A stretch of 17,603 nucleotides of DNA from the IMG/VR virus record IMGVR_UViG_2711768068_000022; one strand, given 5' to 3'. The notes under the pieces were generated by a model. It saw nothing but the letters and a program-made list of their open reading frames with translations. It did not search any database and was not told where the DNA came from. Origin of the DNA: a virus (taxonomy: Duplodnaviria; Heunggongvirae; Uroviricota; Caudoviricetes). Both the position numbers and the translations under genes were made by a program. Each line of letters begins with the position of its first letter. Position 1 is the first letter of the stretch. Positions 1-17,603 of the stretch are shown here, piece after piece.

Positions 1-1461
1 ATGAAAAAATTACTGCGTCTTTTTTTCCCGCTCTCACTGCGGGTACGTTTTCTGTTGGCAACGGCTGCGGTAGTACTGGTGCTTTCGCTTGCCTACGGAA
101 TGGTCGCGCTGATCGGTTATAGCGTCAGTTTCGATAAAACTACGTTTCGGCTGTTACGTGGCGAGAGCAATCTGTTCTATACCCTTGCGAAGTGGGAAAA
201 CAATAAGTTGCATGTCGAGTTACCCGAAAATATCGACAAGCAAAGCCCCACCATGACGCTAATTTATGATGAGAACGGGCAGCTTTTATGGGCGCAACGT
301 GACGTGCCCTGGCTGATGAAGATGATCCAGCCTGACTGGCTGAAATCGAATGGTTTTCATGAAATTGAAGCGGATGTTAACGATACCAGCCTCTTGCTGA
401 GTGGAGATCATTCGATACAGCAACAGTTGCAGGAAGTGCGGGAAGATGATGACGACGCGGAGATGACCCACTCGGTGGCAGTAAACGTCTACCCGGCAAC
501 ATCGCGGATGCCAAAATTAACCTTTGTGGTGGTGGATACCATTCCGGTGGAGCTAAAAAGTTCCTATATGGTCTGGAGCTGGTTTATCTATGTGCTCTCA
601 GCCAATCTGCTGTTAGTGATCCCGCTGCTGTGGGTCGCCGCCTGGTGGAGTTTACGCCCCATCGAAGCCCTGGCAAAAGAAGTCCGCGAACTGGAAGAAC
701 ATAACCGCGAATTGCTCAATCCAGCCACAACGCGAGAACTGACCAGTCTGGTACGAAACCTGAACCGATTGTTAAAAAGTGAACGCGAACGTTACGACAA
801 ATACCGTACGACGCTCACCGACCTGACCCATAGTCTGAAAACGCCACTGGCGGTGCTGCAAAGTACGCTGCGTTCTCTGCGTAGTGAAAAGATGAGCGTC
901 AGTGATGCTGAGCCGGTAATGCTGGAGCAAATCAGCCGCATTTCACAGCAAATTGGCTACTACCTGCATCGTGCCAGTATGCGCGGCGGGACATTGCTCA
1001 GCCGCGAGCTGCATCCGGTCGCCCCACTGCTGGACAATCTCACCTCAGCGCTGAACAAAGTGTATCAACGCAAAGGGGTCAATATCTCTCTCGATATTTC
1101 GCCAGAGATCAGCTTTGTCGGTGAGCAGAACGATTTTGTCGAGGTGATGGGCAACGTGCTGGATAATGCCTGTAAATATTGCCTCGAGTTTGTCGAAATT
1201 TCTGCAAGGCAAACCGACGAGCATCTCTATATTGTGGTCGAGGATGATGGCCCCGGTATTCCATTAAGCAAGCGAGAGGTCATTTTCGACCGTGGTCAAC
1301 GGGTTGATACTTTACGCCCTGGGCAAGGTGTAGGGCTGGCGGTAGCCCGCGAAATCACCGAGCAATATGAGGGTAAAATCGTCGCCGGAGAGAGCATGCT
1401 GGGCGGTGCGCGGATGGAGGTGATTTTTGGTCGCCAGCATTCTGCGCCGAAAGATGAATAA
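1..1461 (+). CDS. phoQ: Sensor histidine kinase PhoQ (PhoP/PhoQ two-component system)
   Basis: 486-aa ORF with ATG start; two N-terminal hydrophobic segments flanking a periplasmic domain, HAMP region, H-box ([11 protein letters not shown]) and HATPase motifs ([15 protein letters not shown]); length and sequence match E. coli PhoQ as recalled. Confidence 0.96.
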
Positions 1462-1978
1462 ATATGTCCTTTTATCACTATACCAGGTCAAGTCATTGAT
1501 TTGATTAAACAATTATCATTGAAAAAGTGCCAAAAATCGCAAATTGACTACACCATTAACTACACCGTTCGGTGCACTGTATGAAACAACGTGGAACAAA
1601 TAGACACAAGAAATATACAGGCGGGTAATCTTTCCAGGGGGAAGCGCACCAATTCATGAGGGGCGTTAATGTCGATATGGGGATCCCCATAACGGGGCTA
1701 CCGGATTTTTTTTCCGGTTAACATTTAATCAGGCTGGTGGGTTTTACATACCCTTGATCACCGTAATGATGATCCAGATGTGCACCTTTTCCACCAATGG
1801 CGGAAAAGCTCCAACCGTAACGATGATCGCTATGGTTGCCTCGATGGTCTGCGTGGTCATTATGACCATTCAGCCAGTGACCTTAATCAGAATTTTTCGC
1901 TAAAAAATGACGTTGGCCACGTCATCCTGATAGCACAAAATCACGTCGACTTTTAATGAACGGTTAAACCGTCTTTTT

Positions 1979-2013
1979 GTCACGGTGTGTCACTGGTTGT
2001 CACTCTCCGTCAC
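1979..2013 (+). repeat. Four GTCAC motifs phased exactly 10 bp apart (starts 1979, 1989, 1999, 2009); candidate recombinase/excisionase or regulator binding array
   Basis: Sequence ttGTCACggtgtGTCACtggttGTCACtctccGTCACgatt read directly; one motif per helical turn. Confidence 0.5.
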
Positions 2014-2127
2014 GATTGAGGTGGTGGTCATTCTGCCCGACCGCGCATTTTTGCGCTATCGGGAATATAAAACAGTTACCGCCGTCAGCTACCCAGCTCA
2101 GAATTGAGCCGCCTTTTAATCAACAAG

Positions 2128-2409
2128 TTACCGCCGTAACCGCTCCGGCTTCTTCCAGTGGTACGTGATTTTCTCCTTCTCCCGATACAGTTCAACGCGG
2201 CGATTGTAGGCCAGCATTTCCAGAACGCGGATCCGTATGTCGCGCATATCCGCATCATTAAGCTGGATACCATCACGGCGCATCACCTCAGCAACAACAC
2301 GCGCATAATTTTCGGCTGTCACGCTGTCCGGCTGCGTGGTCTGTTCGTCAGCCTGCTGGCTGATTCCAGAGACGTGGCGGATTAATCGCAGTATTTCGGC
2401 TTCTGTCAT
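2128..2409 (-). CDS. Hypothetical protein (93 aa), last gene of the packaging operon after TerL
   Basis: ORF with ATG start preceded by GAGG about 9 nt upstream; 14 nt after the TerL stop; no motif recognised. Confidence 0.5.
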   Translation of the reverse strand: MTEAEILRLIRHVSGISQQADEQTTQPDSVTAENYARVVAEVMRRDGIQLNDADMRDIRIRVLEMLAYNRRVELYREKEKITYHWKKPERLRR

Positions 2410-2422
2410 GCTGCTGACCTCA

Positions 2423-4084
2423 TTACACCCCGCTAAATTCTTCCAGTTTCTGGCGGTGGCTGTCGCTTATATCAAAAGCAAAATCCTCATGCTCTGCCTG
2501 GAATGTACCAAACGCCATCAGCGCCGCCACGCTCGGGTCTATCTTGTTCGGTGATTTTTTCTTGTTCGGCTTGATATTGGCGTTCGCGTCACTCTGCATC
2601 ACGACGTTACTCATCGACCAGGACAACACCGGATCGCCACGATGCACAATCACCCTGCGGTTAACAAAAACTTCGAACGATTTCGCCGCCGGACTGAATC
2701 TGAGGTAGGTTTGCGGGAACGGCTCCACCTCAAAGCCTGCCCCCTGTAATTGCGTCCTGAGATGCGTGGCGTTCCACGTATCAAAGCCCACCAGCCTGAT
2801 ATTAAATTTCTCCGCATCCTGCATGATGTCATCTCTGATCCGGTCGTAATCAATGCAGTCACCTGGCGTTGTGCGTATCCAGCCCGCTTTAGCCCACTGG
2901 CGATAGACAGCGCGGTTTTTATTGGCGGGGTTCTGTAGCTGGAACTCCGGCAGATAATGACGGGAAACCAGCATGATATTTTTACCGACCGGAAAGGCAT
3001 AGCACACGCTGGAAATATCGCTGGTTGATGATAAGTCCAGCCCCGCGTAACACTCCTGCCCGTGTAAATCTTCCTCCGTGAACGTTCCGGCACACTCAGC
3101 CCATGCGCCGTTACCCATCCACGGGGTAGCCCCCTGGCACCAGATATTAAATCGCTTTGTCATCATCTCCACCCATTGCGACGGAATACCCCGCGCTTTC
3201 TGGATGGTTGAGGCCAGTTTTTCACGATCCACGGAAACATCGATGTTAGGGTTAGCCTTTATCCACATCGCCGGATCATCAACCTCGTTTTCGTCGTCCA
3301 GTTCGTAAATCAGTACAAAAATTGAATCGTTGACCTCTTCGCCGTCCAGGATCTGGCAGCAATAATCATAGTGCTGCTTACAGGCTGAAACGACGTTACT
3401 GCCCGATGTGGTAATGGCAAATAACAGCCCTTCGGGACGTGCGCCCATCCCCAGCTCAAGCGCGGAATAAACGCCGTTATCGGGGTGTAGGTGGTATTCG
3501 TCCACGATGGAAAGGCTTGGGTTTGTGCCCTCGATGGTTGCCGCTTTTGCTGCCAGCGGCTTTAACAGGCTGTTGCTTTTCGGGTGCATCACCTTGTGGG
3601 CCTGAATATTCACCCGCCTGCGTAACGGTCGGGATAAAAGGCACATCTGACGCGCATCATCAAAAACGATCCGCGCCTGGTCACGGCTCACCGCTGCGGT
3701 GTAAATATCCTGCTGCCCGTTCTCCATAATCAGAAACCAGTTAGCCAGAATCGCGGCGGTCGTGGATTTCGCATTTTTGCGCGGCACTTCGATAAAGGCG
3801 CTCGTGTATTTGCGCCGTCCGGTGGCCTTAACCTTAAAGCCGAGGATGCACGCAAAGGCGAACTGCTGCCACGGCTCCAGCTCAATGGGTCTGCCACGCA
3901 TCGGCCCTTTTACGTGCGGGCACACCCTGGAAAAGGCAATAAACCGCTCCACAACCTCACGATCGAACGTGTAAAGGGGGCTTTCAAGGTCCGAAAAGTA
4001 CCGTTTAACGGCCTGTTTCAGCCGTTTACAGGCCGGAATTTTGCCCGTTTTTACGTCTTCTGCGTACTTATTCCAGGCGGTCAA
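2423..4084 (-). CDS. Terminase large subunit (TerL)
   Basis: 553-aa ORF; N-terminal WNKYAEDV...GK motif typical of terminase ATPase domains, C-terminal nuclease-like region; apparent TTG start at 4082-4084 preceded by GAGGA, overlapping the TerS 3' end by 17 nt. Confidence 0.9.
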   Translation of the reverse strand: MTAWNKYAEDVKTGKIPACKRLKQAVKRYFSDLESPLYTFDREVVERFIAFSRVCPHVKGPMRGRPIELEPWQQFAFACILGFKVKATGRRKYTSAFIEVPRKNAKSTTAAILANWFLIMENGQQDIYTAAVSRDQARIVFDDARQMCLLSRPLRRRVNIQAHKVMHPKSNSLLKPLAAKAATIEGTNPSLSIVDEYHLHPDNGVYSALELGMGARPEGLLFAITTSGSNVVSACKQHYDYCCQILDGEEVNDSIFVLIYELDDENEVDDPAMWIKANPNIDVSVDREKLASTIQKARGIPSQWVEMMTKRFNIWCQGATPWMGNGAWAECAGTFTEEDLHGQECYAGLDLSSTSDISSVCYAFPVGKNIMLVSRHYLPEFQLQNPANKNRAVYRQWAKAGWIRTTPGDCIDYDRIRDDIMQDAEKFNIRLVGFDTWNATHLRTQLQGAGFEVEPFPQTYLRFSPAAKSFEVFVNRRVIVHRGDPVLSWSMSNVVMQSDANANIKPNKKKSPNKIDPSVAALMAFGTFQAEHEDFAFDISDSHRQKLEEFSGV

Positions 4085-10665: not shown

Positions 10666-10875
10666 TGCCCACCTCTACCCACTTTTTTCGCCCACTTTTT
10701 ACGTTTTCCCACTTCGTCCAACGTGGGAAATTTGGGATTTATATCATCTTGTTTCATAGGTATTTTTTTAGTGCCCACTTTTTGGGATATATGCACGTGG
10801 GAAAGTGGGTAATTTTGTTAAAATTCCGTTAAATCGCCCACCTTTCCCACTTTTAATGCCCACTTTTTACAGTGG
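10666..10875. repeat. Iteron array with central AT-rich segment: putative replication origin
   Basis: About 8 direct copies of CCCAC(T/C)TTT plus inverted copies (ACGTGGGAAA, GTGGGAAAGTGGG) around an AT-rich stretch (about 10735-10770); lies at and just past the 3' end of the replication ATPase gene. Confidence 0.7.
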
Positions 10876-12264
10876 TCCTACATCATCACCGTCAATGTAG
10901 ATCACGTCGTCTTTTTCCAGTTTGGCTAACCATCGTTTAAGGTGTTTTGTGTCATACCCCAGCTTTTTCATATCGTCACGTAACAGCGGGATCGTGCACT
11001 TGTCGCCGTGCTGTGTGCGTGAACGTATGCATCCCCATAGCGCGGTATGGTTTTCCGTCTTGTTGCCTGCCTCCTCGATGCGCTCCAGTTCAACGGGAGG
11101 GCGCGGCTTATCCACCACCACCAGCGACGTGATTAACTCCCCGTCAGCGTCGGTAAAAAGCTCCACCACGCGTAAGTCATATGCGGCTTCTTTGAGTTCC
11201 TCCGCGTCCTTCATTTTGGTGCATGAGATAACCAGCGCTTCGCTTCCTGCGTCCTCCCTGCGTATCCGGTATTCAGCATCCAGCGAAGCACGAAATGCAC
11301 TAGAACCGCGCGCGCCTTTCGTCTCATCCTTGCCGGAATGGTGAACCACCAGCACCGTGGCCCCTGTGCGTCGTTTCAGTTCGTCACAACCACGGATAAA
11401 CGCCCCCATATCACGGGAATCATTTTCATCATTACCACCAAAGCAACGCGCCAGCGTATCCAGAATAATCATGCGAACAGGTTTACCCGTTTCCCTCTCC
11501 ACCTGACGGGCAGCGATAACCATTTCATCAACATCAAGCGGGACCGCCGGAAAGATGGGACGGTTTACCAGATACAGATTTTTCACCTGCTCACCGTGCA
11601 CAACCTCCCAGGCTTTTACACGACGCGGAACGCCGATACCGCCTTCACCAACCACATAGAGAACAGCGCCATGCGCCACCCTGCGGCCTCCCCACTGACG
11701 GCCCGTGGAAACGTGACACGCCCACGAACCCGCAAGGAATGATTTATAGGAACCGCTTGCCCCGTATATGCTGCATAGCGACGATGCCGGAATAATCCCC
11801 TTTACCACGTAATCTAATTGCGTGTCGTATCCGGCAGATCCAACGCTCATCGGTAGCGTGGTTTTTCGCTGGTGGTGTTCTTCCCCTGGCTTTTTCCCCC
11901 GCTCCCGTTCCAGATATTCGCGCCAGTTCTCCCGCTTCTGGCTGTGTATCCCTTCGGGGTAATAATTCGCATCAGTTACGCCCGCCGCCGCCAGCTTGTG
12001 CGCAATGGCATTAATATTTGATGGCCTGATGTGGCCTGCCTTGTACAGCCGGACACAATAGCGCCCCTCGTCGATGATTCTCAGGTCTGCCAGTTCATCC
12101 AGTTGATCATCAGCCAGCACAATGGGAGGCACATTATCGCCAGCCAGTCGCCCGTCCTGTTCCTGCCACTGTTTCGCATGTGCCCACGCATCACTACCCG
12201 CAAAAATGATGACTTCGGTCATCTTGTCGTAAGGCTGTTTTTTTAAGTTCGGTGCGCTTTTCAT
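10867..12264 (-). CDS. Replication protein, RecA-fold ATPase (RepA/DnaB-like helicase/primase-associated)
   Basis: 465-aa ORF; deviant Walker A (YGASGSYKS), Walker B-like MIILDT, and VLVVHHSGKD motif typical of RepA/AAA_25-type replication ATPases; ATGA overlap with the upstream ORF. Confidence 0.78.
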   Translation of the reverse strand: MKSAPNLKKQPYDKMTEVIIFAGSDAWAHAKQWQEQDGRLAGDNVPPIVLADDQLDELADLRIIDEGRYCVRLYKAGHIRPSNINAIAHKLAAAGVTDANYYPEGIHSQKRENWREYLERERGKKPGEEHHQRKTTLPMSVGSAGYDTQLDYVVKGIIPASSLCSIYGASGSYKSFLAGSWACHVSTGRQWGGRRVAHGAVLYVVGEGGIGVPRRVKAWEVVHGEQVKNLYLVNRPIFPAVPLDVDEMVIAARQVERETGKPVRMIILDTLARCFGGNDENDSRDMGAFIRGCDELKRRTGATVLVVHHSGKDETKGARGSSAFRASLDAEYRIRREDAGSEALVISCTKMKDAEELKEAAYDLRVVELFTDADGELITSLVVVDKPRPPVELERIEEAGNKTENHTALWGCIRSRTQHGDKCTIPLLRDDMKKLGYDTKHLKRWLAKLEKDDVIYIDGDDVGPL

Positions 12265-12560
12265 TTCTTGCCCCTGAATCCGTTAATCATGGTTTTCAGC
12301 TTCTGGATGTTTGCCCGTGCCCTGGCGTTGCTGGTGGGCACGTTATGCGGCGCGGTCTGTACCAGAGAAAAATCACGCCGGAACTGATAAACAGGCATCA
12401 CGCAATCATATTCGTAACCTTCACGGCGGTAAGTTACGCACCGTCCCGCCACGCCCTTAATCATTACCGTGCCGCCGTACTGGTCGCGGTAAATATCACC
12501 GCGCATAAATTTAGGGTGAGTGTTGCCACTGGCAGTTAAGCCAGAATATTTAAGTTTCAT
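12261..12560 (-). CDS. Hypothetical protein (99 aa)
   Basis: ORF with GGAGAA SD; translationally coupled to the replication ATPase gene. Confidence 0.55.
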   Translation of the reverse strand: MKLKYSGLTASGNTHPKFMRGDIYRDQYGGTVMIKGVAGRCVTYRREGYEYDCVMPVYQFRRDFSLVQTAPHNVPTSNARARANIQKLKTMINGFRGKK

Positions 12561-13404: not shown

Positions 13405-13690
13405 GTGAAAGGCTCCCAGATGAATTTTAAGGAGTCTCGCTACTACGCTGTCAAACATGGTGGCGAGACGTAACAGGGTTGACAGACTGGTCATCTGGAA
13501 ACCAGCGAGCACAAAGGCTCCCCCGTTACGCCCCGCCATAATGCGGGTATGGGTAGGTTTACGGACACAAAAAAACCGCTTATCGGATGTGGGCGGCTGT
13601 CCGCCAGATGTATTCAGGCTGTCAAACCCGGTCGCCATGTGGGCGACGGGGGAAGCATACAGCCCCGTGATAATTTTTTGCAAGCGGTTT

Positions 13691-14248
13691 TTACGCATGA
13701 TGTGACCCCTGACGAATACGGGCGGCGAATACAGCAACACAACCGGACGGGCAACGGCTACGCGCTTCGCGTTCCGTCCAGGCGGTTACGTGGATGATTT
13801 GATGTTCTGACGCGCCAAAGATGATAAAGCGCCAGAGAAAGGCGGTTTGAGAATGTACAAGGGTAGGGATAGTAGCCATGTTGGCAGCCTCCTCAGTGTG
13901 GTTAAGATAACCGCCACCGGAAACGCCAATTTCGCTGGTGGCGGACTGTACAGGGTTGGCGTAACCGGACACTGAAGAAACCGGCGCGGATTGCTCCGCC
14001 CCCGTACAGCCCACCATTGATAAGGTGTGACTATGCGGCACAAAAAAACACGCGGGGCGCGTGTTATGCGCTTCAGTTTTGCCCAGGACGCCAATCCCGG
14101 CACCCGTTTTATGAGGTGCGCGGGAATCATAGCTATTTTCGACACTGGCGATCAACTGGTTTTTTTCTCCGATATTCAGTGCCAGAAAACGCCACACAAA
14201 GGCAGTTTGTGTGTGTACAAGGTGTGGTATATGATTTACAGCAACCAT
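13691..14248 (-). CDS. Hypothetical protein (185 aa) with internal duplication; its C-terminal 62 aa (13691-13879) has its own strong SD and may be translated separately as paralog B
   Basis: ATG 14246-14248 with AGGAG SD and an upstream 5'-UTR hairpin; N-terminus MVAVNHIPHLVHTQTAFVWRF and internal MATIPTLVHSQTAFLWRF (GAGGAG SD) are paralogous. Confidence 0.4.
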   Translation of the reverse strand: MVAVNHIPHLVHTQTAFVWRFLALNIGEKNQLIASVENSYDSRAPHKTGAGIGVLGKTEAHNTRPACFFVPHSHTLSMVGCTGAEQSAPVSSVSGYANPVQSATSEIGVSGGGYLNHTEEAANMATIPTLVHSQTAFLWRFIIFGASEHQIIHVTAWTEREARSRCPSGCVAVFAARIRQGSHHA

Positions 14249-14421: not shown

Positions 14422-14441
14422 AAAAACATGAGGGGTTAAAC

Positions 14442-14621
14442 ATGGCAACGGGTCCAAAGAATGCAAAATCACAATCTGTAACTGCACGTATTGCCCATGA
14501 AATTATTGAAGGCATGGAGAACGTGAAAGAAGAAGGTGAAAGCACGGGGCAGTTTATAAACGCAGCCATGCGCGGCGAAATCAAACGCCGCCAGCGCCGC
14601 AAGACCAAAGAATCAGAATAA
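14442..14621 (+). CDS. Arc/MetJ-like ribbon-helix-helix DNA-binding protein (59 aa), module 1
   Basis: ATG with GAGGGG SD 6 nt upstream; predicted strand-helix-helix pattern (SVTARIAHEIIEGMENVKEEGESTGQFINAAMRGEI), basic C-terminal tail. Confidence 0.6.
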   Translation: MATGPKNAKSQSVTARIAHEIIEGMENVKEEGESTGQFINAAMRGEIKRRQRRKTKESE

Positions 14622-15810: not shown

Positions 15811-15999
15811 TTAGTGAACTGCCTTGCAGCTATCCTTCCAGGCCAAAACCTCAGATAAAGACCAGCCAACAGAACGCCCACCAAGTTTACGACGTGATGG
15901 GAATTGTCCGGCCTTTTCCAGGCGGTAGCGGCATGAGCGGCTAAGGCCTGTTAGCTTTTCGCATTCTTTTTCACGTATAAACCGATCAGTGCTTAACAC
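15811..15999 (-). CDS. alpA: AlpA-family (phage Xis/MerR-like) transcriptional regulator/excisionase
   Basis: 62-aa ORF, GTG start with AGGGGG SD; motif KLTGLSRSCRYRLEKAGQFP...GGRSVGWSLSEVLAW matches the AlpA family; sits next to the integrase. Confidence 0.8.
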   Translation of the reverse strand: MLSTDRFIREKECEKLTGLSRSCRYRLEKAGQFPSRRKLGGRSVGWSLSEVLAWKDSCKAVH

Positions 16000-16050: not shown

Positions 16051-16080
16051 GATGTGTCTGATTGTGTCAGGATGATTCAG
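16051..16080 (+). repeat. Three tandem 10-bp units GATGTGTCTG / ATTGTGTCAG / GATGATTCAG upstream of alpA
   Basis: Read directly; helical-turn phasing; same TGTGTC core as the arrays at 1979-2013 and 16281-16335. Confidence 0.5.
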
Positions 16081-16280: not shown

Positions 16281-16335
16281 CTTGTTCGTGATTGTGTCAC
16301 GTTGTTGCACATTGTTTCACGTTGTATCTGTGCAC
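16281..16335 (+). repeat. Tandem ~20-bp direct repeats (GTTGTTGCACATTGTKTCAC) just 3' of int
   Basis: 15-bp ATTGTGTCACGTTGT (16291-16305) and ATTGTTTCACGTTGT (16311-16325) differ at one position, with a partial third unit. Confidence 0.55.
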
Positions 16336-16373: not shown

Positions 16374-17603
16374 TTATTTTATTCTGGTTACTGGTAGCGT
16401 GGTTACGTTTTCATGTGTTCCCGCCAGTATCTCCAACCGCTCCACCCACATATCAAGCGCATTGCGTTTCGCATCAATATAGCGGGAATGGTTGTACACG
16501 CGTTGCATTCCTGGCATCTGGTGGCCTGTAAGCTGCTCCACGACGTGAGGATCAACGCCTAAATCGTTCAGCATGGTTGTAAAGGTGCGCCGGATGTCAT
16601 GCAATGACCATTGAGGGTGTTTTAGCCTCCTGTGCGCTAATCTGCCGTACTGCGATACGCTGGTTTCCTGTTTCACTTCCCCCAGCAATAAGCCCGTGTG
16701 CCTGTTCTGCTCCACCAGCTGCGTGACGAACGGCAGTATCGCTTCCGGTATGGGCCGGAATATGGCTACCTTCGTTTTGCTGTGCTCCTTCGGAACGGTC
16801 CAGAGCATTTCGGTAAAATCCCACTCGCCGATCTCCGATAACCTCAGTTCTACTGTTCGGCATCCGAAAACAATCAGGAGGCGGATTAGTGCGACGTAGT
16901 AAGGGGAAAATATTTTTTTGTCCAGTGCCTGCAATAATTCGCCAAGTTCTTTGTTACTTAAGACACGCTCGCTTATATCCGGTTTTTTCCCAACGTCCGC
17001 CACACTCATATCATCAAGAACGTTGCTGATTGCATAGCGCCGCTTCCTGCAGAACTTAAGCGCCTGCTTGCATGTCTGTAGCAGGAACCCGGCGGAAACA
17101 GGGGCTTTCTTTGCCACCCGATCAAAACAGGCCAGCCAGTGCCGTAGCTCGCATTTATCCAGCGGCATAGGGCCAATGTGCTGTATTACGTGATTATTTA
17201 GCCGCTTTTTCAGTGGGTCATAATCCACACGGTTTTCCTTTGCGTACGACTCAAGCCAGTAGGTGAGCGCATCGCCAACCGTTACCGGCTTTAACGCTTC
17301 CTGTACGGTGTAATTCATTTCATGACGTGGATTTTTCCCCTCTGCCAGCCATGCGCGACACTGGGCGGCTTTTTCCCTGGCTGATTTCAGGCTCAGATCA
17401 GGATAATTTCCCAGCTTAATGCGTTCCGGTGGTGCCCCCCTTCCCGTTCCGGCCCTGTAAGTGAAATACCAGGTTAAAAGGCCACTGGTTGAATGCCTGA
17501 CGCTCAGGTTTCCACCGTCATTAAGAAAGGCTGTTTTTTGGGCGGGTGTGCCGTTGATTTTCCTCAGCTGTGTATCGCTCAGTTTGTTAAGTGCTCTGCT
17601 CAT
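16374..17603 (-). CDS. int: Tyrosine site-specific integrase (P4-type)
   Basis: 409-aa ORF; C-terminal catalytic motifs (HDIRRT, LTGH, Y in RVYNHSRY); ATG start is the last three bases of the window, so the adjacent att site is outside it. Confidence 0.92.
   Translation of the reverse strand: MSRALNKLSDTQLRKINGTPAQKTAFLNDGGNLSVRHSTSGLLTWYFTYRAGTGRGAPPERIKLGNYPDLSLKSAREKAAQCRAWLAEGKNPRHEMNYTVQEALKPVTVGDALTYWLESYAKENRVDYDPLKKRLNNHVIQHIGPMPLDKCELRHWLACFDRVAKKAPVSAGFLLQTCKQALKFCRKRRYAISNVLDDMSVADVGKKPDISERVLSNKELGELLQALDKKIFSPYYVALIRLLIVFGCRTVELRLSEIGEWDFTEMLWTVPKEHSKTKVAIFRPIPEAILPFVTQLVEQNRHTGLLLGEVKQETSVSQYGRLAHRRLKHPQWSLHDIRRTFTTMLNDLGVDPHVVEQLTGHQMPGMQRVYNHSRYIDAKRNALDMWVERLEILAGTHENVTTLPVTRIK

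Follow-up and report, generated by a model that had tools for sequence, protein, structure and literature searches.

The helically phased GTCAC array near the left end of a phage satellite downstream of phoQ is probably (we would put it at about 70%, from sequence comparison) a selected protein-binding array that is unrelated to the attachment site, the integrase or AlpA. Its partner can be named more tentatively. The array may be an accessory site for the replication initiator of a helper phage, carried as a portable iteron-type cassette in the 3' tail of a PICI, an idea that we hold as possible rather than probable.

Layout of the Island

The window, that is the whole stretch of 17,603 nucleotides that was analyzed (IMG/VR virus record IMGVR_UViG_2711768068_000022), begins with phoQ. 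The rest of it is a capsid-forming PICI-type phage satellite that is read on the minus strand. The landmarks are:

1-1461, plus strand: phoQ
2128-2409, minus strand: orf93, 93 aa, last gene of the island operon, PICI-specific hypothetical, PHROG 1561
10867-12264, minus strand: RepA-like helicase gene
12261-12560, minus strand: RgdR-type DUF4222 gene, 99 aa
13691-15049, minus strand: Ash-family gene, a 452-aa ORF
15811-15999, minus strand: alpA, with its start at 15999
16374-17603, minus strand: int, P4-like Int with an Arm-DNA-bind_3 domain

The helicase gene is followed by genes for SSB, PerC, an HK97-type capsid protein, protease, portal, head-completion and connector proteins and an HNH protein, and then by P27-type TerS, TerL (2423-4084) and orf93. 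A near-identical island (L001) is found in strain OkiPb01697 between phoQ and roxA, and an EcCIEDL933/CP-933C-type element (L006) occupies the same phoQ/roxA site in O157:H7 genomes. Two further features of the operon were observed. Rfam matches at gathering level (13456-14119, minus strand) identify two C4 antisense RNAs, isrK and an a1/b1 C4 target site in the region of the Ash-family ORF, an antisense immunity of the P1/P7/P4 style within a satellite. The 99-aa DUF4222 protein has an RGD at residues 20-22 and belongs, by its sequence, to the RgdR family, whose members regulate type III secretion and motility; RgdR has been described for O-island 51/CP-933C (PMC3378721). We had considered orf93 as RgdR and rejected this, since the RGD motif belongs to the 99-aa ORF.

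The GTCAC Array Is Phased Beyond Chance and Invariant in Its Cores

1979-1983, 1989-1993, 1999-2003 and 2009-2013, plus strand: four GTCAC cores in exact 10-bp phase
1968-2014, plus strand: 47-bp block ACCGTC-T5-[GTCAC x4]-G, constant across all contexts

The earlier note had reported four GTCAC at exact 10-bp spacing at 1979-2013, and the coordinates are confirmed. The units read TTGTCACGGTG, TGTCACTGGT, TGTCACTCTC and CGTCACGATT. GTCAC itself has an ordinary frequency in the window (29 sites, 29.6 expected); the unusual feature is the phasing and not the abundance of the motif. No other 5-mer of the window is repeated four times at a period of 9-11, 3000 first-order Markov windows yielded none at period 10, and analytically 1.6e-5 chance arrays are expected per window, placing the observed one far beyond chance. 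Both TRF and a separate repeat search reported it.

All 20 core positions and the 10-bp phase are kept in ten copies from different islands, and the four variable positions of the block all lie in the spacers. The 47-bp block is 94-98% identical in L003, L004, L030, L044, L069, L302 and L303, whereas the adjacent orf93 DNA is only 78-82% identical in L004, L044, L069, L302 and L303. In L044, L069 and L303 the left flank is largely unalignable, and these three islands present a second context, in which a fifth in-phase unit is present and the array borders directly on the stop codon of orf93. Across islands the block takes the form ACCGTC-T(4-6)-[GTCAC x4-5]. Among 5,426 complete E. coli genomes, 231 carry it, at 259 places in all, and in 39 of 40 genomes among the matches listed there is no annotated feature under the match. 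A relaxed form of the pattern, searched in genome contigs, gave one enterobacterial match (Shigella flexneri); the others were chance matches in GC-rich genomes.

The Island Boundary Lies 510 bp From the Array

1460-1469, plus strand: island/chromosome junction with the 10-bp core direct repeat AAATATGTCC, overlapping the phoQ stop codon (1459-1461)
1543-1566, plus strand: tandem ATTGACTACACC / ATTAACTACACC (the ACTACACC pair), 74-97 bp from the core
1583-1609, plus strand: GAAACAA / GGAACAA / GACACAA at exact 10-bp spacing, in the att arm

The array had been proposed to mark the attachment region, with the island boundary shortly to the left of 1979. Comparison with an uninterrupted phoQ-downstream locus refutes this placement, as junction and direct repeat map far from 1979, to 1460-1469. 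The alignment comprised the empty phoQ-roxA site of L002 (2962-2971), the window (1460-1469) and the right end of L001 (34805-34814). At the empty site GATGAATAAATATGTCC is followed by ATACTTCACG, at the left junction of the window GATGAATAAATATGTCC is followed by TTTTATCACT, and at the right end of L001 TTGATAAAATATGTCC is followed by ATACTTCACG. The first island base is 1470, and in thousands of empty-site genomes the match ends at 1466-1469. Because the junction is at 1460-1469, the array lies 510 bp inside the island.

The best candidates for integrase arm-type sites are the ACTACACC pair at 1543-1566. The pair is found in the same orientation at both ends of L001, L003-L006 and L303, which are all the completely sampled islands with a P4-like Int (the window and L044 show one end only). 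L302, which has an unrelated Int, is without ACTACACC pairs and carries GTAGCTA repeats at both ends instead; thus, the arm repeats co-vary with the integrase. The end repeats of L302 (at tRNA-Pro), CGTATAGCT(T/A)AACGTGTAGCTAAAAA plus GTAGCTA units at 14430-14470 and 24895-24975, are a second example of arm repeats that follow the integrase type. The ACAA units at 1583-1609 have matching units in the same orientation in the right arm of L001. The GTCAC array shares none of this behavior. It is located outside the arms that flank the core, it has no counterpart at the right end of L001, and in L302 and L303 it is about 700 bp away from the flanking gene. For annotation, the true island junction and the likely arm sites are now fixed, and a conspicuous repeat beside the end of an island may be unconnected with the recombination machinery.

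Two further observations concern this end region. Between the array cassette and the att arm (about 1755-1880, minus strand) there is a hydrophobic 41-codon ORF (MVIMTTQTIEATIAIIVTVGAFPPLVEKVHIWIIITVIKGM), which shows an internal deletion in L003 and another C-terminus in L005/L006 and is probably not a gene. Motifs of the type GTTAACAT occur five or more times in L003 at 16690-16830, the clpS/cspD island end, and once in the window (1715-1724).

Arrays Near int and alpA Have a Different Core

16051-16080, plus strand: two or three 10-bp units of the TGTGTC type, upstream of the alpA start by 52-81 bp
16281-16335, plus strand: five 10-bp units with the core TTGT(T), which reads ACAA on the operon strand; 3' of the int stop by 39-93 bp

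These two arrays had been grouped with the GTCAC array as related TGTCAC-type sites. Upstream of alpA, the units read GGATGTGTCT, GATTGTGTCA and GGATGATTCA; two exact TGTGTC stand 10 bp apart, while one of the three tandem TGTGTC(A) units that had been claimed is degenerate. The tandem repeats 3' of int do exist, with TRF giving period 10 and 3.4 copies and the repeat search a 20-nt pair. When the window was compared with L005, L006 and L044, TTGT was invariant at 16281-16335 and the lone GTCAC at 16296 was not conserved; the units upstream of alpA were partly kept as TTGTGTC / TTGTTCC. Since the conserved core of the int- and alpA-proximal arrays is TTGT(T)/ACAA and not GTCAC, the three arrays do not form one family. 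The units 3' of int (ACAACGTG, ACAATGTG and others on the operon strand) belong to the same family as the att-arm units, and the 10-bp ACAAYGTG-like unit of the internal arrays recurs in both att arms of this island type. The proposal that the internal arrays are putative recombination or regulator sites therefore still stands.

The Array Does Not Follow Integrase, Replication or Packaging Type

Array-bearing islands were found at four insertion sites: phoQ/roxA, clpS/cspD (L003, L004), tRNA-Pro/yejO (L302) and yifB (L303). Identity to the integrase of the window ranges from 100% down to 25% among them, and that to AlpA from 100% down to marginal. The block is present in L302, where Int is 25% identical and an AlpA-like protein marginally similar, and in L003 and L004 (Int 78%, AlpA 59-66% identical). 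It is absent from L005 and L006 at phoQ/roxA, the latter an EcCIEDL933-type cf-PICI, where Int is 95% and AlpA 98% identical. Thus, the array co-varies neither with Int nor with alpA, and it adjoins neither att nor a conserved promoter. By these comparisons, the array does not belong to the attachment site and is not where the Int or AlpA of the island would bind.

The genes for replication and packaging vary as well. Beside the array we found replication genes of the RepA-helicase, primase/DUF5906 or DUF927 type and packaging modules that were HK97-like, lambda-like or of the protease-capsid fusion type. A cos/cosB site was rejected, since the array does not follow the packaging module: all three modules occur with it, and the EcCIEDL933 type has the same terminase without the array. 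No lambda-type cosN was present in the window, and no cos position is given in two cf-PICI papers. Elsewhere, two lambda-type cosN (GGGCGGCGACCT) in inverted orientation were seen in two classical PICIs, in L005 (18408, plus; 19275, minus), where they flank terS, and in L030 (6774, plus; 7513, minus); both pairs agree with the two cos sites reported for EcCICFT073. In the gene-content table, array-bearing islands have no gene of their own, and the two contexts of the array share no conserved promoter to its left or right. An island of the EcCIEDL933 type is reported to be induced, packaged, transferred and fully functional, so the array is dispensable for the basic life cycle. For satellite biology, the array represents a small, mostly unannotated accessory element that moves between PICIs regardless of integrase, replicon and packaging type.

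The island also appears to have an origin of its own elsewhere:

10678-10870, no strand assigned: candidate island origin with at least seven CCCAC(T)TTT / GTGGGAAA repeats, directly 3' of the RepA-like helicase gene

This region overlaps a spurious 127-aa ORF and is common to islands with different helicase and primase types. In position and layout it agrees with the ori published for E. coli PICIs, which is located immediately 3' of rep and has two repeat sets around an AT-rich stretch (PMC6092414; Fillol-Salom et al., 2018), and it is likely the island's own PICI origin. The GTCAC array was rejected for this role, as the CCCAC repeats by the helicase gene would fill it.

A Cassette Slot 3' of orf93

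1877-2043, no strand assigned: present/absent cassette with the array, between the anchors GGTCATTATGACCATTCAG (1856-1876) and GCGCATTTTTGCGCTATCGGGAATAT... (2044-2075)
1902-1928, minus strand: terminator-like hairpin, AGGAUGACGU-GGCCA-ACGUCAU followed by U5-6 on the operon strand

The cassette was defined by alignment of the window, L003 and L302, which have the array, with L005, which does not. Islands without the array hold other modules between the anchors. The array is always found 3' of orf93, at a distance of 15-400 bp. Homologues of orf93 occur in 1,583 E. coli genomes at 2,056 places, and about one in eight of these elements (259 of 2,056 places) has the array; orf93 is equally present in islands without it. 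As a candidate binder of the array, orf93 gained no support from homologue, domain and fold searches and was rejected. The phage collection has no homologue, there is no Pfam match, and PHROG 1561 is without known function. The protein has 965 homologue clusters, of which the 120 listed are unnamed or 'hypothetical/prophage protein' and from E. coli where named. Its AlphaFold model has a pLDDT of 69.5 (low confidence), shows no DNA-binding fold and gave no Foldseek match at E<=0.001.

The hairpin at 1902-1928 has a 10-bp terminal stem in the RNA fold and is absent from the list of the consensus scan. In the second context (L069, L303) a hairpin with U8 also follows the array. With a terminator-like hairpin beyond it, the array would be in the 3' untranslated part of the orf93 transcript. 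No Rfam family was found in window positions 1400-2500 at E<=1.

The slot has other contents that deserve description. It holds tandem modules of about 55 bp (window 2040-2127; L006 16560-17010; L302 15055-15460), each of which combines a palindrome of variable sequence (CCTCAAATTGAGG, GCGCAATTTTGCGC, GCTCAGAATTGAGC and others) with one copy of the region at the 3' end of orf93, GAAWATCAnnnnGTTACCGCC. There are 5-6 copies in L006 and about two in the window (repeat D2, 2067-2098 / 2119-2150). Modules of the CCTCAAATTGAGG type are homologous to a segment of phage Rha-N/KilAC antirepressor genes, and on the operon strand the modules would be antisense to ant mRNA. In addition, about 59 bp at 1884-1942, including the hairpin, are 78-80% identical to DNA 3' of the endolysin gene R, a likeness that was seen in 141 phage records, mostly Stx-converting.

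Phased GTCAC Arrays in Phage Initiator Genes

A scan of viral contigs for GTCAC-N5 x4 returned at least 120 loci, which were reduced to 78 distinct arrays. Among the 78 listed, 58 lie fully within an ORF of 100 aa or more that shares the strand of the GTCAC units. The commonest PHROG families of the array-containing ORFs, nearly all 'replication initiation protein', include 3729 (22), 1408 (15) and 10469 (8). As a 10-bp period cannot be a codon repeat, the constraint is on the DNA, and we infer that the phage arrays are initiator-binding sites. The other 20 of the 78 listed are not fully within a long ORF. A metagenomic HNH/terminase phage family carries 4-6 TGTCACCGTT/TGTCACTGAA units and a T-run between terL and portal (L123, 3822-3856; also L008, L019, L040, L098 and L120), so phased GTCAC is not exclusive to origins.

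The replication gene of the E. coli lambdoid phage Tritos follows cI-cro-rha and contains GATTGTCACGGCGCGTCACGAAATGTCACGCACATGTCACGACGAGTCACGACAG, that is five TGTCACG units, and then the A-rich AGATAAAGATACAGATAAAG. Initiator genes of the Tritos type and of the L007 type are present in 2,078 and 2,186 of 5,426 complete E. coli genomes (about 40%), and cognate initiators are thus common in this host. No protein encoded by the island resembles the phage initiator families, and no similarity of the cassette to a phage origin was found outside the repeats. One variant of the array shares 17 nt with the L007-type gene. Identities of 15-17 nt are about what multiple comparisons would give, and this one was dropped as a signal of homology because it is not significant after counting the comparisons.

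What the Array May Bind

The general idea of the earlier note, that head-to-tail repeats in helical phase form a site for protein binding, still stands as a reading of the sequence. If the partner is a phage initiator, a protein from a lambdoid helper phage or prophage would bind the array via its N-terminal DNA-binding domain, with one monomer per helical turn. Initiators of this class would have their own origin of phased TGTCAC(G) repeats within the initiator gene. With the helper replicating in the cell, the initiator would load onto the satellite, and the outcome would be either a second, helper-driven start site for the satellite or a drain of initiator from the phage. Several lines point to this reading: an array that defies chance, varies only in its spacers and is independent of every island function; an island origin of a different kind (CCCAC), while the phage GTCAC arrays lie mostly in initiator genes; the Tritos layout and the abundance of the initiator genes in E. 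coli; and the reported interference of ectopic origin repeats with lambda. The reading is weakened by the lack of likeness beyond the repeats, by an A/T tract on the opposite side, by units that run against transcription, by the 20 of 78 listed arrays that are not fully within a long ORF and by the dispensability of the array in the EcCIEDL933 type. A new contact between satellite and helper, at replication initiation, would follow if a helper-phage initiator binds the array. In a more far-reaching version, which we regard as speculative and less likely than not, the cassette would be a 'landing pad' that satellites can exchange and that imitates the origin repeats found in one of the commonest E. 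coli prophage replication modules, such that the initiator of the helper replicates the satellite or is sensed by it, or the helper is starved of it; the neighboring antirepressor-like cassettes would be further helper-directed tags. Landing-pad effects, if true, would be independent of the satellite's own replicon.

It is unlikely that the array is an inert relic, leftover or hitch-hiking phage DNA that was moved between PICIs by recombination in the cassette slot. The alternative contents between the anchors (1856-1876 and 2044-2075), the phage-like neighboring pieces (antirepressor segments and the Stx-phage endolysin 3' stretch), the occurrence in about an eighth of orf93-bearing elements and the dispensability in the EcCIEDL933 type would all be consistent with such an origin. 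However, a relic is expected to decay at least as fast as its surroundings, and the block is far better preserved than the adjacent gene. Furthermore, no variable position falls among the 20 of the cores and every copy keeps the phase, a pattern that recent horizontal spread could mimic in part, and the block is kept in two unrelated flanking contexts. Another DNA-binding protein, be it a host factor, orf93, a helper Cox/Xis-type protein or an integrase arm-domain, might use the array to govern read-through where the operon ends, or to detect the helper in the way of P2 Cox on P4. A phased head-to-tail arrangement suits many proteins of the winged-helix and Xis-like kinds, the array always sits after orf93 and before a terminator-like hairpin, and the arm-type consensus of lambda Int (C/AAGTCACTAT) contains GTCAC(T), which we count for such a protein. 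We nevertheless give this explanation a low probability: orf93 is found as often without the array and its model has no DNA-binding fold, there is no promoter conserved beside the array in the two contexts, and no specific candidate emerged.

An action at the RNA level appears quite improbable. GUGAC repeats in the 3' UTR of orf93 would then target the iteron region of phage initiator mRNAs, as an antisense RNA or a decoy. This would fit the position of the array between the orf93 stop and the terminator-like hairpin in both contexts, its antisense orientation to the coding-strand GTCAC of phage initiator genes, the 17 nt shared between one variant and the common L007-type gene, and neighboring modules that would be antisense to phage antirepressor genes. 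Pairing would need spacers that match the target, however, and invariance is confined to the 5-nt cores; the 17-nt identity is near the multiple-comparison expectation, the array region is weakly structured, and it has no Rfam family at E<=1. The original reading of the array, which took it for a mark of the attachment region made of Int arm-type or AlpA/Xis sites, is now very improbable. Such proteins do bind phased direct repeats, the Int has an arm-binding domain, AlpA is encoded, and the array lies in an end region of the island. Against this, the junction is 510 bp away and arm-type repeats that track Int are found elsewhere, the array accompanies a 25%-identical Int with a marginal AlpA-like protein and is missing beside a 95%/98% pair, and the int-proximal arrays have a different conserved core.

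Comparison With Known Systems

The origin of E. coli PICIs (PMC6092414) resembles the GTCAC array in that repeats occur in the same kind of element, where they are bound by the replication protein; the array, in contrast, is about 8.7 kb away from it and does not track the rep type. Like attP arm-type and Xis/AlpA sites, the array consists of short direct repeats with a spacing of about one helical turn and is close to the end of an island, but it lies 510 bp from the core and shows no co-variation with Int or AlpA. A parallel in organization is the Cox-box array of satellite P4, phased repeats in a satellite that are reportedly bound by the Cox protein of the helper P2. P2 Cox activates P4 through this phased array. 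The motif differs, though, and the GTCAC array has no conserved promoter beside it. MatP/matS and PhoB boxes were dropped from the comparison, since matS is an inverted repeat and PhoB boxes have an 11-bp period.

The lambdoid origins inside an initiator gene (ori-lambda in O; Tritos) have 4-6 helically phased repeats in transcribed DNA, as does the island array. The Tritos layout is that of lambda, with the origin inside O. The repeats of lambda's own origin are 19-bp palindromes, while the Tritos-type and L007-type genes have the same unit as the island array, TGTCAC(G/T). Like the iterons of phage origins, the island array has at least four phased direct repeats with an invariant core and variable spacers, and its core motif is shared with arrays in initiator genes of phages of the same host. 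Unlike them, it is not in or next to a cognate initiator gene. Compared with the phage arrays, it has a short A/T stretch only, on the opposite side relative to the orientation of the units, and the units themselves are oriented against operon transcription.

Origin repeats that act outside a phage genome offer a last comparison. Lactococcal Per is an ectopic copy of an origin that blocks phage. For lambda, two reports describe ectopic origin repeats that interfere with the phage, the 'inhibition phenotype' (PMC3349717; PMC4488673). The likeness to the GTCAC array consists in initiator-type repeats outside the phage genome. These ectopic origins are engineered or plasmid-borne, whereas the GTCAC array occurs naturally, as an accessory cassette that a satellite carries. 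If the initiator reading is true, the array would parallel, in a natural setting, the engineered 'origin decoy' effect.
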